6,253 nucleotides of DNA from the IMG/VR virus record IMGVR_UViG_2690316278_000010. One strand, given 5' to 3'. Numbering within the stretch: position 1 is the stretch's first letter; each line of letters starts with the position of its first letter. Positions 1,022 to 6,253 of the stretch are shown here, piece by piece. This DNA comes from a virus (Duplodnaviria > Heunggongvirae > Uroviricota > Caudoviricetes). Both the position numbers and the translations under genes were made by a program. The notes under the pieces were generated by a model. The model ran no database searches, was not told the origin of the DNA, and worked only from the letters and a program-made list of their open reading frames with translations.

Positions 1022-2101
1022 ATGGGTAAAGGCAGCAGTAAGGGGCATACCCCGCGCGAAGCGAAGGACAACCTGAAGTCCACGCAGCTGCTGAGTGTGA
1101 TCGATGCCATCAGCGAAGGGCCGGTTGAAGGTCCGGTGGATGGATTAAAAAGCGTGCTGCTGAACAGTACGCCGGTGCTGGACAGTGAGGGGAATACCAA
1201 CATCTCCGGCGTCACGGTGGTGTTCCGGGCAGGTGAGCAGGAGCAGTCACCGCCGGAGGGATTTGAATCCTCCGGCTCCGAGACGGTGCTGGGTACGGAA
1301 GTGAAATATGACACGCCGATCACCCGGACCATCACGTCGGCAAACATTGACCGACTGCGTTTTACCTTCGGTGTACAGGCACTGGTGGAAACCACCTCAA
1401 AGGGAGACAGGAATCCGTCTGAAGTTCGCCTGCTGGTTCAGATACAGCGTAACGGTGGCTGGGTGACGGAAAAAGACATCACCATTAAGGGCAAAACCAC
1501 CTCGCAGTATCTGGCCTCGGTGGTGGTGGATAACCTGCCGCCGCGCCCGTTTAATATCCGGATGCGCAGAATGACGCCGGACAGCACCACAGACCAGCTG
1601 CAGAACAAAACGCTCTGGTCGTCATACACCGAAATCATCGATGTGAAACAGTGCTACCCGAACACGGCACTGGTCGGCGTACAGGTGGATTCGGAGCAGT
1701 TCGGCAGCCAGCAGGTGAGCCGTAATTATCATCTTCGCGGGCGCATTCTGCAGGTGCCGTCGAACTATAATCCGCAGACGCGGCAATACAGCGGTATCTG
1801 GGACGGAACGTTAAAACCGGCATACAGCAACAACATGGCCTGGTGTCTGTGGGATATGCTGACCCATCCGCGCTATGGCATGGGGAAACGTCTTGGTGCG
1901 GCAGATGTGGATAAATGGGCGCTGTATGTCATCGGCCAGTACTGTGACCAGTCGGTGCCGGACGGCTTTGGCAGCACGGAGCCGCGCATCACCTGTAATG
2001 CCTGGCTGACCACACAGCGCANCGGGAGACAGCGGACAGCACCACGGACCAGCTGCAGAATAAGACGCTGTGGTCGTCATACACCGAAATCATCGATGTG
2101 A
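1022..2101 (+). CDS. J: Host specificity / central tail fibre protein J, N-terminal fragment; frame ends at a stop created by the repeat junction
   Basis: ATG at 1022. Translation MGKGSSKGHTPREAKDNLKSTQLLSVIDAISEGP… matches lambda gpJ N-terminus as recalled. J-like translation is reliable to about 2020; after the single N at 2022 this frame reads out-of-frame sequence to TGA at 2099-2101. Confidence 0.88.
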   Translation: MGKGSSKGHTPREAKDNLKSTQLLSVIDAISEGPVEGPVDGLKSVLLNSTPVLDSEGNTNISGVTVVFRAGEQEQSPPEGFESSGSETVLGTEVKYDTPITRTITSANIDRLRFTFGVQALVETTSKGDRNPSEVRLLVQIQRNGGWVTEKDITIKGKTTSQYLASVVVDNLPPRPFNIRMRRMTPDSTTDQLQNKTLWSSYTEIIDVKQCYPNTALVGVQVDSEQFGSQQVSRNYHLRGRILQVPSNYNPQTRQYSGIWDGTLKPAYSNNMAWCLWDMLTHPRYGMGKRLGAADVDKWALYVIGQYCDQSVPDGFGSTEPRITCNAWLTTQRXGRQRTAPRTSCRIRRCGRHTPKSSM

Positions 2102-2475
2102 AACAGTGCTACCCGAACACGGCCATTGTGGGGCTGCAGGTGGATGCGGAGCAGTTCGGCGGCCAGCAGATGACGGTGAACTACCATATCCGCGGTCGCA
2201 TCATCCAGGTGCCGTCAAACTATGACCCGGAAAAACGCACGTACAGTGGTATCTGGGACGGTAGCCTGAAACCGGCATACAGCAACAATCCGGCCTGGTG
2301 TCTGTGGGACATGCTGACTCACCCGCGCTACGGCATGGGAAAACGTCTGGGGGCGGCGGATGTGGACAAGTGGGCGCTGTATGCCATCGGGCAGTACTGC
2401 GACCAGACGGTCCCGGATAGTTTCGGGGAGACCGAGCCGCGGATGACCTTCAATGCGTACCTGGCACAACAGCGT
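1579..2475 (+). repeat. Divergent tandem duplication of a ~440 bp J segment (copy 1 ~1579-2020, copy 2 ~2034-2475), single N at 2022 between them
   Basis: Both copies encode the same J stretch (…DSTTDQLQNKTLWSSYTEIIDVKQCYPNTA…WCLWDMLTHPRYGMGKRLGAADVDKWALY…TTQR) with many synonymous and some replacement differences. By eye roughly 80-90% nucleotide identity, gapless; not computed. The period is about 455 bp, not a multiple of 3, so the frame shifts between copies. Confidence 0.85.
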
Positions 2476-3147
2476 AAGGCATGGGACGTGCTCAGTGATT
2501 TCTGCTCGGCGATGCGCTGTATGCCGGTATGGAACGGCCAGACGCTGACGTTTGTTCAGGACCGCCCGTCGGATGTGGTGTGGCCGTACACCAACAGCGA
2601 TGTGGTGGTGGATGATAACGGCGTGGGTTTCCGCTACAGCTTCAGTGCCCTGAAGGACCGGCACACGGCGGTGGAGGTGAATTATACCGACCCGCAGAAC
2701 GGCTGGCAGACCTCCACGGAACTGGTGGAAGACCCGGAAGCCATACTGCGCTACGGACGCAACCTGCTGAAGATGGACGCGTTCGGCTGTACCAGCCGCG
2801 GTCAGGCCCACCGTGCCGGACTGTGGGTGATAAAGACCGAACTGCTGGAAACGCAGACGGTGGATTTCACGCTCGGGTCTCAGGGGCTGCGGCACACACC
2901 CGGTGACATCATTGAAATCTGTGATAACGACTATGCCGGGACCCTGACCGGCGGACGTGTCCTGTCCATTGATGCTGCCACCCGCACTCTGACGCTGGAC
3001 CGTGAAGTGACACTTCCGGAGACCGGTGCCGCCACGGTGAACCTGATTAACGGCAGCGGTAAGCCGGTGAGTGTGGACATCACCGAACACCCCGCGCCGG
3101 ACCGGATACAGGTTAGTACCCTGCCTGATGGTGTGGAGACATACGGG
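2023..3147 (+). CDS. J: Host specificity protein J, middle fragment (different frame from the N-terminal fragment; runs open into the N gap at 3148)
   Basis: Frame 1 reads …DSTTDQLQNKTLWSSYTEIIDVKQCYPNTAIVGLQVDAEQFGGQQ…AWDVLSDFCSAMRCMPVWNGQTLTFVQDRPSD…GQAHRAGLWVIKTELLETQTVDF…, colinear with lambda gpJ. The ORF-track start at 2098 is an internal GTG (Val) codon. Confidence 0.85.
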
Positions 3148-3208
3148 NNNNNNNNNNNNNNNNNNNNNNNNNNNNNNNNNNNNNNNNNNNNNNNNNNNNN
3201 NNNNNNNN
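3148..3208. other. Assembly gap (61 N) inside J
   Basis: Run of N. J reading frame differs on the two sides (frame 1 before, frame 3 after), so the gap length is an estimate. Confidence 0.95.
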
Positions 3209-3358
3209 ACTGCGCCGTCTCCTGTTCCGCTGTGTCTCCGTCCGGGAAAACACGGACGGCACCTTTGCCATCACGGCGGTGCAGCACGTACTGGAAAAAG
3301 AAGCCATCGTGGATAACGGTGCCCGCTTTGAGCCGCAGTCAGGTTCCCTGAACAGCGT
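3209..3358 (+). CDS. J: Host specificity protein J, short fragment between two assembly gaps
   Basis: Frame 3 from 3210 reads LRRLLFRCVSVRENTDGTFAITAVQHVLEKEAIVDNGARFEPQSGSLNSV, matching the lambda gpJ segment …LFRCVSIRENDDGTYAITAVQHVPEKEAIVDNG… as recalled. Bounded by N runs on both sides. Confidence 0.8.
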
Positions 3359-3649
3359 NNNNNNNNNNNNNNNNNNNNNNNNNNNNNNNNNNNNNNNNNN
3401 NNNNNNNNNNNNNNNNNNNNNNNNNNNNNNNNNNNNNNNNNNNNNNNNNNNNNNNNNNNNNNNNNNNNNNNNNNNNNNNNNNNNNNNNNNNNNNNNNNNN
3501 NNNNNNNNNNNNNNNNNNNNNNNNNNNNNNNNNNNNNNNNNNNNNNNNNNNNNNNNNNNNNNNNNNNNNNNNNNNNNNNNNNNNNNNNNNNNNNNNNNNN
3601 NNNNNNNNNNNNNNNNNNNNNNNNNNNNNNNNNNNNNNNNNNNNNNNNN
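3359..3649. other. Assembly gap (291 N) inside J
   Basis: Run of N. J resumes in frame 1 after the gap (frame 3 before it). Confidence 0.95.
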
Positions 3650-5151
3650 ACCGGCAGNCGGATGCCAGACTGGTGACCACCGCCATCACCGCAGACACGG
3701 AGCACCGTTTCAGCGGCCTGCCGCTCGGGGAATACACCCTGACGGTGCGGGCGATAAACAGCTATGGCCAGCAGGGTGAACCTGCCACCACCACCTTCCG
3801 GATTGCCGCACCGGCAGCGCTGTCGCGGATTGAGCTGACGCCGGGCTATTTTCAGATAACCGCAACGCCGCATCTTGCCGTTTATGACCCGACGGTACAG
3901 TTTGAGTTCTGGTTCTCGGAAAAGCGGATTGCGGATATCAGGCAGGTTGAAACCAGCGCCCGCTATCTTGGCACGGCGCTGTACTGGATAGCCGCCAGTA
4001 TCAATATCAAACCGGGCCATGATTATTACTTTTATATCCGCAGTGTGAACACCGTTGGCAAATCGGCATTCGTGGAGGCTGTCGGTCGGGCGAGCGATGA
4101 TGCGGAAGGTTACTTGGATTTTTTCAAAGGAGAGATAGGGAAAACACATCTGGCTCAGGAGCTGTGGACGCAGATTGATAACGGTCAGCTTGCGCCTGAC
4201 CTGGCTGAAATCAGGACGTCCATTACGGATGTCAGCAATGAAATCACGCAGACCGTCAATAAGAAACTGGAAGACCAGAGTGCGGCAATTCAGCAGATAC
4301 AGAAGGTTCAGGTTGATACAAATAATAATCTGAACAGCATGTGGGCTGTGAAGCTGCAACAGATGAAGGACGGACGCCTTTATATTGCGGGTATCGGTGC
4401 CGGTATTGAGAATACGCCAGCAGGAATGCAGAGTCAGGTGCTGCTGGCGGCAGACAGGATTGCGATGATTAATCCTGCGAATGGCAACACAAAGCCGATG
4501 TTTGTTGGTCAGGGCGATCAGATATTCATGAACGACGTGTTCCTGAAACGCCTGACGGCCCCCACCATTACCAGCGGTGGAAATCCATCGGCATTTTCCC
4601 TGACTCCGGACGGAAAGCTGACCGCTAAAAATGCGGATATCAGTGGCAGTGTGAATGCGAACGCCGGGACGCTCAACAATGTCACAATTAATGAGAACTG
4701 TCAGATTAAGGGGAAACTGTCAGCCAACCAGATTGAAGGCGATATAGTCAAAACAGTGGGTAAGGCTTTTCCGCGGGACTCCCGGGCACCGGAGCGGTGG
4801 CCATCAGGGACCATTACCGTCAGGATTTATGACGATCAGCCTTTTGACAGGCAAATTGTTATTCCGGCGGTGGCATTCAGCGGCGCTAAACATGAGCGGG
4901 AGAATAACGATATTTATTCGTCATGCCGCCTGATAGTACGGAAAAACGGTGCTGAAATTTATAACCGTACCGCGCTGGATAATACGCTGATTTACAGTGG
5001 TGTTATTGATATGCCAGCTGGTCGCGGCCACATGACGCTGGAGTTTTCGGTGTCAGCATGGCTGGTGAATAACTGGTATCCCACAGCAAGTATCAGCGAT
5101 TTGCTGGTTGTGGTGATGAAGAAAGCCACCGCAGGCATCAGTATCAGCTGA
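3650..5151 (+). CDS. J: Host specificity protein J, C-terminal fragment (FN3-like region and receptor-binding C-terminal domain)
   Basis: Frame 1 is open from the gap edge to TGA at 5149-5151. Translation …[64 protein letters not shown]…[42 protein letters not shown]… matches lambda gpJ as recalled. The ORF-track start at 3673 is an internal GTG codon; an ambiguous N sits at 3658. Confidence 0.88.
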
Positions 5152-5168
5152 ATTTTATAACCCATATA

Positions 5169-5197
5169 CGGGCGCCAGAAATGGCGCCTTTTTTATT
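5169..5197 (+). terminator. Intrinsic (rho-independent) terminator immediately downstream of J
   Basis: Perfect 6-bp GC stem GGCGCC (5171-5176) paired with GGCGCC (5183-5188), 6-nt loop AGAAAT, followed by TTTTTTATT (5189-5197). It starts 18 nt after the J stop. Confidence 0.8.
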
Positions 5198-5207
5198 GCA
5201 GAAAAGC

Positions 5208-5213
5208 GAGAGG
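5208..5213 (+). promoter_or_regulatory. Ribosome-binding site (GAGAGG) for lom
   Basis: GAGAGG at 5208-5213, 5 nt upstream of the lom ATG at 5219. Confidence 0.6.
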
Positions 5214-5218
5214 TAATT

Positions 5219-5818
5219 ATGCGTAAAGTTTGTGCAGCCATTTTGTCCGCAGCCATCTGTCTGTCCGTATCCGGTGCGCCTGCATGGGCGTCTGAACATC
5301 AGTCCACACTGAGCGCGGGGTATCTTCATGCCCGTACGAACGCTCCCGGCAGCGATAATCTGAACGGGATTAACGTGAAATACCGTTATGAGTTTACGGA
5401 CGCGCTGGGGCTGATTACGTCCTTCAGTTATGCCAATGCTGAGGATGAGCAAAAAACGCACTACAGCGATACCCGCTGGCATGAAGATTCCGTGCGTAAC
5501 CGCTGGTTCAGCGTGATGGCGGGGCCGTCTGTACGCGTGAATGAATGGTTCAGCGCGTATGCGATGGTGGGTGTGGCTTACAGCCGTGTGTCGACTTTCT
5601 CCGGGGATTATCTCCGCGTAACTGACAACAAGGGGAAAACGCACGATGTGCTGACCGGAAGTGATGACGGTCGCCACAGCAACACGTCTCTGGCGTGGGG
5701 GGCTGGCGTGCAGTTTAACCCGACCGAATCCGTGACCATTGACCTTGCTTATGAAGGTTCCGGTAGTGGTGACTGGCGAACGGATGCATTTATTGTTGGT
5801 ATCGGATACCGTATCTGA
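5219..5818 (+). CDS. lom: Lom outer-membrane protein (Ail/Lom/OmpX/PagC-family small beta-barrel), prophage moron
   Basis: ATG at 5219, TGA at 5816-5818, 199 aa. N-terminal signal peptide with AWA-S cleavage-like site (MRKVCAAILSAAICLSVSGAPAWA/SEHQ). Family motifs shared with lambda Lom as recalled: GINVKYRYE, SVMAGP, SAYAM(V/A)GVA(Y/H)SR, IDLAYEGSGSGDWRTD(A/G)FIVG(I/V)GY. Same position as lom in lambda, between J and stf. Confidence 0.9.
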   Translation: MRKVCAAILSAAICLSVSGAPAWASEHQSTLSAGYLHARTNAPGSDNLNGINVKYRYEFTDALGLITSFSYANAEDEQKTHYSDTRWHEDSVRNRWFSVMAGPSVRVNEWFSAYAMVGVAYSRVSTFSGDYLRVTDNKGKTHDVLTGSDDGRHSNTSLAWGAGVQFNPTESVTIDLAYEGSGSGDWRTDAFIVGIGYRI

Positions 5819-5922
5819 CAACAGACGCCGATTTATCTTCTGTAAATATTGTTATGATACGCAGGTTCATCCACCTTATGGGGTGAACTGCGTTTGAGGA
5901 AACGTAAAGTTACACTGTCCTG

Positions 5923-5956
5923 AAGCCCGTGGCGTCACTGCTGCGGGCTTTTTTTA
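5923..5956 (+). terminator. Intrinsic terminator downstream of lom
   Basis: Stem AAGCCCG (5923-5929) pairs with CGGGCTT (5944-5950) around a ~14-nt loop, followed by a run of 7 T (5949-5955). Confidence 0.7.
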
Positions 5957-5969
5957 TTGGTGGAAAAGT

Positions 5970-6253
5970 ATGACAGTAAAAATTTCTGGCGTGCTTAAAG
6001 ATGGCACAGGAAAACCAGTACAGAACTGCACCATTGTGCTGAAGGCCAGACGAACCAGCAGCACGATGGTGGTGAANNNNNNNNNNNNNNNNNNNNNNNN
6101 NNNNNNNNNNNNNNNNNNNNNNNNNNNNNNNNNNNGGATGAAGCCGGACGTTACAGCATGGATGTTGAGCATGGTCAGTACAGCGTCACCCTGCTGGTTG
6201 AAGGTTTTCCGCCTTCACATGCCGGGACCATTACCGTCTATGAAGGTTCCAGA
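5970..6253 (+). CDS. stf: Side tail fibre protein Stf, N-terminal part (3'-truncated by window edge; interrupted by a 59-N gap)
   Basis: ATG at 5970. Translation MTVKISGVLKDGTGKPVQNCTIVLKARRTSSTMVV… then, after the gap, …DEAGRYSMDVEHGQYSVTLLVEGFPPSHAGTITVYEGSR, matching the lambda Stf (orf-401) N-terminus as recalled (MAVKISGVLKDGTGKPVQNCTIQLKARR…DEAGRYSMDVEYGQYSV…GFPPSHAGTITVYE…). Frame differs across the gap, so gap size is an estimate. Confidence 0.85.
   Translation, partial: MTVKISGVLKDGTGKPVQNCTIVLKARRTSSTMVVXXXXXXXXXXXXXXXXXXXXXMKPDVTAWMLSMVSTASPCWLKVFRLHMPGPLPSMKVP
6077..6135. other. Assembly gap (59 N) inside stf
   Basis: Run of N. Confidence 0.95.

Follow-up and report, generated by a model that had tools for sequence, protein, structure and literature searches.

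An apparent tandem duplication in a lambda-type tail gene J is very probably a false scaffold join between two prophages

The tail gene J of the stretch of DNA analysed here (the window, 6,253 nt) appears to carry a diverged tandem duplication, which is very probably an assembly artefact in which a scaffolder strung together contigs of two prophages with an N as placeholder between them. The evidence for the false link comes from reference genomes rather than from reads of the isolate itself. An exact-protein look-up of the 359-aa open reading frame (ORF) that spans this N returned one place, CXCB01000221.1, and the window is the entire record (6,253 bp), a scaffold of the draft assembly GCA_001255415.1. 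The source of the assembly is most likely Shigella sonnei, sequenced as a short-read draft, because the window is nearly identical to S. sonnei 53G (HE616528.1; name confirmed in PMC5447701) and because the neighbouring WGS prefixes CXBN, CXBR and CXBV are listed as S. sonnei drafts (Holt et al, 2012). The window consists of six pieces of sequence and five N gaps, as follows (prophage A and prophage B are the two source loci described below; L008 and L009 are the prophage B loci of CP032523.1 and 53G).

1–2021, + strand: contig 1, prophage A; C-terminus of K to 392, I from 290 or 389 to 961, J nt 1–1000 at 1022–2021
1573–2021, + strand: copy 1, allele A of J, about aa 184–333; reaches the last base of contig 1
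2022, no strand: single N, probable scaffold-join placeholder; the implied gap is negative, −454 nt in J coordinates
2023–3147, + strand: contig 2, prophage B, J nt 547–1671
2028–2476, + strand: copy 2, allele B, same stretch of J; begins no more than 5 nt into contig 2
2099–2101, + strand: TGA stop that ends the 359-aa 'J' ORF (1022–2101), a probable artefact of the join
3148–3208: 61 N; true distance 23 nt in 53G
3209–3358, + strand: contig 3, prophage B J; 150/150 identical to L009
3359–3649: 291 N
3650–3657: 8-nt island between the 291-N run and a single N
3658: single N; the whole of 3359–3658 is 300 nt, with a true distance of 115 nt in 53G
3659–6076, + strand: contig 5, prophage B; 3' part of J to 5151, lom 5219–5818, start of stf from 5970
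6077–6135: 59 N; true distance 21 nt in 53G
6136–6253, + strand: contig 6, prophage B stf; 118/118 identical to L008 and L009

The repeat itself is easily seen. In an ungapped comparison, 1573–2021 and 2028–2476 form a direct repeat with a fixed offset and a start-to-start spacing of 455 nt, in which 364 of 449 bases are identical (81%), 85 of 449 differ and there are no indels; the longest exact run between the copies is 53 nt (1616–1668, equal to 2071–2123). Translated in their own frames, 1577–2020 and 2032–2475 agree at 123 of 148 residues, and both copies encode J residues 186–333 in the numbering of the reference allele. The codon differences comprise 37 synonymous and 25 non-synonymous changes, which puts the 449-nt homology far beyond chance and is the pattern that would be expected of two old functional alleles. 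Copies 1 and 2 are read in frames 2 and 1, respectively (455 = 3 × 151 + 2). Since 455 is not divisible by three, the J frame opening at 1022 reads through the N and stops at the TGA at 2099–2101. An initial annotation made from the sequence had described the two divergent copies at this spacing (the peptides it quoted were reproduced exactly), the single N at 2022, the change of frame in copy 2 and the stop at 2099–2101, all of which we see as well; its end point for copy 1, 2020, should be corrected, since contig 1 ends at 2021.

Close relatives of the two sides were found by exact-protein look-ups of I and Lom, and they place the sides at two different loci. Contig 1 is identical at 2021/2021 positions to the closed genome CP032523.1 (L004; 4,834,449–4,836,469), has a 100% match in two drafts (L005 and L007) and differs by one mismatch from a third (L006). 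In all four of these, J allele A is intact, uninterrupted and single copy, at 1,165 aa. Contigs 2, 3, 5 and 6 align collinearly to another locus of CP032523.1 (L008, at ~4.28 Mb) and to 53G (L009) at 99.3–100% identity, with 1, 0, 17 and 0 mismatches, respectively, relative to 53G. Contig 2 (1125 nt) has 2 mismatches relative to CP032523.1 and is 78.8% identical to prophage A, and contig 5 is collinear with L009 8441–10858. Identity between the two prophages is only 74–79% across K, I and the 5' half of J, with 74–78% for contig 1 against prophage B; their loci in CP032523.1 share one orientation and are separated by 553,840 bp. The sequences on either side of the N therefore match different loci of a finished genome, at 100% on the left and 99.8–99.9% on the right. 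This agrees with the proposal in the initial annotation that the copies are alleles of two lambdoid prophages: we find the left contig 100% identical to prophage A and the right-hand contigs 99.3–100% identical to prophage B, ~554 kb away. Complete E. coli genomes are ~97% identical to contig 1 and ~98.6% to contig 2, and in the E. coli strains holding both best matches the two fall in different prophages; these identities are too low to settle co-occurrence of both alleles at full identity, which was settled by the exact-protein look-ups.

The geometry of the junction is that of two overlapping contig ends. In J coordinates, contig 1 ends at nt 1000 and contig 2 starts at nt 547, so the 'duplication' corresponds to a 454-nt overlap of two alleles. 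The homology abuts the N on both sides, the BLAST segments stopping 2 nt short of it on the left and resuming 10 nt beyond it on the right. Each contig end is a clean cut through its own allele: in the references, ...CAGCGCA, where contig 1 stops, is followed by AGGCGTGGG, and CGGGAGACAG, with which contig 2 opens, follows ...GGATGGTC. Neither closed CP032523.1 locus has an internal repeat in J. A 1,301-nt query across the region, which matched 4,539 E. coli and 253 phage records, maps onto 819–846 nt in all of the 50 matches listed, from which the mapping was read. A 166-nt query centred on the N aligns as two permuted pieces spanning 453 nt in 15/15 matches listed and is never contiguous. 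Scans for the junction pattern that accepted any base at the N found nothing in GTDB species representatives, IMG/VR or JGI metagenomes, and in independent assemblies (L004, closed; L005–L007, drafts) contig 1 continues into allele A. The junction is absent from all finished genomes searched, which bears out the earlier suspicion that the block of K, I and the J N-terminus is not contiguous with what follows. The further suggestion of a scaffolding join between overlapping but non-identical contig ends holds as far as the join is concerned; these do not appear to be merely the unmerged ends of one locus, and the join is probably a false one between two loci.

The four other N gaps, which the initial annotation did not mention, provide key context. 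The record is a gapped draft scaffold whose placeholder gaps disagree in length with the closed genomes: 61 N stand for 23 nt, 59 N for 21 nt, and the 300 nt of 3359–3658 for 115 nt, a true distance that includes a 22-bp deletion of prophage B J in 53G. For both the 61-N and the 59-N run, the excess is exactly 38 nt. As the lengths of the N runs are wrong, the reading frames 3' of each gap are arbitrary. The J frame of the window is broken at the join and at every gap, with no single frame of ~1,130–1,170 codons, and we attribute these breaks to the assembly. The 8-nt island ACCGGCAG (3650–3657), between the 291-N run and the single N, is probably a gap-filling residue. In 53G, the same 8-mer also occurs 6 nt downstream of where contig 3 ends; placing the island at one site was tried and rejected, as the 8-mer is too common in these loci. 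Gaps are also present in a chromosome-scale assembly (CP029794.1, 4.54 Mb) with the same prophage B, which has three 100-N gaps at 2525, 17188 and 19280 of the extracted locus (L014), in the tape-measure gene and IS1 copies.

Both alleles are also represented in contig 5. All 17 of its mismatches relative to the prophage B reference fall within 3819–4635, and 17/17 carry the prophage A base. Across 3718–4712, the window has the B base at 65 of 82 sites that discriminate A from B and the A base at the other 17/82, in four patches. At the A patches of the window, seven closed or near-closed reference loci are B throughout. A sibling draft (L012, CXDS01000012.1 of GCA_001259615.1), whose prophage B part begins at the equivalent of window position 4285, is likewise pure B and differs from the window at 10 sites in the patch span. 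Judged from these sites, contig 5 is a mosaic of A and B, which indicates that the two alleles were co-assembled, and it looks like a collapsed consensus of two J copies that are 93% identical. The sibling draft also has a junction of its own, a single N at 9066 at which divergent J/lom alleles (91.7% identity) dovetail exactly over 1,117 nt, which suggests that false joins in prophage tail genes recur across this draft batch. Elsewhere in the same sibling scaffold, P2-like baseplate and tail genes run into J at nt 406 across a 9-N gap (5732–5740), and a further single N is found at 15266, in the tail-fibre region.

The false join probably arose as follows. Over J nt 547–1000, alleles A and B would have been too different to merge and would have been kept as separate contigs, while the more similar downstream parts of the two J genes would have been collapsed by the assembler. 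Read pairs from both prophages would then lead into this common downstream sequence, with those from prophage A linking contig 1 to sequence held only in the B contigs, and the scaffolder would put both branches in series. Given a negative implied distance and ends that could not be merged, a single N would be written. SSPACE writes a single n for an overlap that is predicted but cannot be merged; text on such a single N for a negative gap was not found in a scaffolder evaluation paper or a full-text literature search. The frameshift and the 359-aa 'J' ORF would be consequences of the join, and the real genome would have one copy of the stretch in each prophage. A candidate anchor for the false link is the 50-nt exact run between A and B at 2488–2537 (+ strand; J nt 1012–1061), which begins 11 nt beyond the end of contig 1, and 47 nt of which are shared by a third allele in the sibling scaffold L012. 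Exact runs of 50 and 53 nt are plausible points of assembly-graph tangling or false read-pair links. However, runs of 50–53 nt are perhaps not long enough for full-length reads to be mis-mapped, and their role in the false link is tentative.

Among the alternatives, the one that survives best is a real hybrid prophage, in which recombination joined the K-I-J 5' end of A to the J 3' part, lom and stf of B, so that only the 454-nt overlap would be artefactual, contributed by reads of the parental alleles. Lambdoid tail genes are mosaic, the exact A/B runs of 50–53 nt could support recombination, and the allele A patches of contig 5 could in principle be real gene conversion. We nevertheless consider this hybrid very unlikely, considering that both parental versions of the 454 nt are present and each matches its own locus (A at 100%, B with at most 2 mismatches in 1125 nt), that at the A-patch sites the sibling draft, like all seven closed or near-closed references, is pure B, and that no hybrid junction was seen. 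In addition, a simple crossover would delete 554 kb, as inferred from the same orientation of the two loci in CP032523.1, or else an extra prophage copy would be needed. For the broader case, that the two resident J genes have truly recombined, giving an A/B hybrid tail module or else a tandem arrangement out of register, and that the scaffold is a garbled record of this, we see a very slim chance indeed.

Taken at face value, the deposited record has both copies with one base between them, and could describe a genuine diverged tandem duplication of J residues 186–333, with the N as an ambiguous base call and J frameshifted and dead. The initial annotation had kept this as its alternative, and we regard its probability as close to negligible. 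Copies made by duplication would be each other's closest relatives, whereas these are 81% identical to one another and 100% and 99.9% identical to two separate prophages, and an uninterrupted duplication would be expected in independent genomes, whereas the stretch is single copy in the E. coli and phage matches listed and in the closed S. sonnei loci. A spacing of 455 nt puts the copies in different frames. The repeat boundary coincides exactly with the N, the homology dovetails onto both contig ends, and there is no reason for a biological duplication to be centred on an ambiguous base. We give practically no credence to a true overlap within one locus, with both ends from the same J gene and sequencing or consensus errors blocking the merge: unmerged overlaps are usually marked by a single N between the two ends, but the 85/449 differences are codon-aware (37 synonymous, 25 non-synonymous, 0 indels) and each version recurs in independent closed genomes (A exactly, B with at most 2 mismatches in 1125 nt), and sequencing error as the cause of the differences is ruled out by this codon pattern and the near-perfect reference matches.

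The preferred reading, a false join between prophages A and B, has precedents. For a high-throughput pipeline of Velvet, SSPACE and GapFiller, the authors warn that its greedy tools can join contigs falsely (Page et al, 2016; PMC5320598). GapFiller extends both edges of a gap base by base and leaves it open unless the two extensions have an overlap of 10 nt or more and agree with the gap size (PMC3446322). The window resembles SSPACE/GapFiller false joins in having N runs that depart from the true distances, a single N between ends that overlap in the reference, and joins that lie inside multi-copy prophage genes and are repeated in a sibling assembly; the Page et al (2016) pipeline (PMC5320598) may have been the one used for GCA_001255415.1. 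A second parallel is the haplotype false duplication flanking a gap, with which the window shares two diverged versions placed head to tail around a gap and nearby, more similar sequence collapsed into a mosaic consensus. Here, however, the place of the diploid alleles is taken by paralogous J alleles, one from each of two prophages of a haploid genome. The feature is of a known class of scaffolding artefact (false joins and false duplications around gaps) and holds no new biology.

The underlying genes are an ordinary lambda-type K-I-J-lom-stf tail module. The gene order is that of bacteriophage lambda, whose gpJ is the tip attachment protein (central tail fibre), and intact allele A together with the window fragments matched the gpJ Pfam domains FNIII-A_GpJ, Phage-tail_3, Ig_J, Ig_J_second, Phage_Tail_Tip and Ig_GpJ_C. 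Matching sequence is annotated as J in E. coli and phage records. Unlike in lambda, no intact J can be read in the window, given the probable false join and the missized gaps; intact forms are found in the reference loci. Duplication of a functional domain was considered and rejected, as aa 186–333 start within FNIII-A (aa 86–207), end just inside Phage-tail_3 (aa 330–498) and are repeated out of frame.

This is a matter of quality control only: the K-I-J-lom-stf linkage implied by the scaffold is very probably not a real one. For typing of prophages, J alleles or host-range determinants from this draft batch, scaffolds should be broken at N gaps inside prophage tail genes, and single Ns in such draft scaffolds warrant particular suspicion. 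The 359-aa chimeric 'J' (1022–2101, + strand) and a 291-aa antisense ORF are spurious proteins that are now in public protein collections. The latter (2215–3090, − strand) lies inside J, is without a Pfam match and is found among public gene calls.

A dead tail tip, which the initial annotation had expected if the duplication were real, has a separate basis in prophage B. In closed S. sonnei genomes, prophage B J is a pseudogene (6482–9933 in L009, HE616528.1; same coordinates in L008, CP032523.1), with a TGG to TGA change at codon 68 and the 22-bp deletion at J nt 1875–1896. Both lesions fall outside the assembled sequence of the window, the first upstream of contig 2 and the second inside the 291-N gap.
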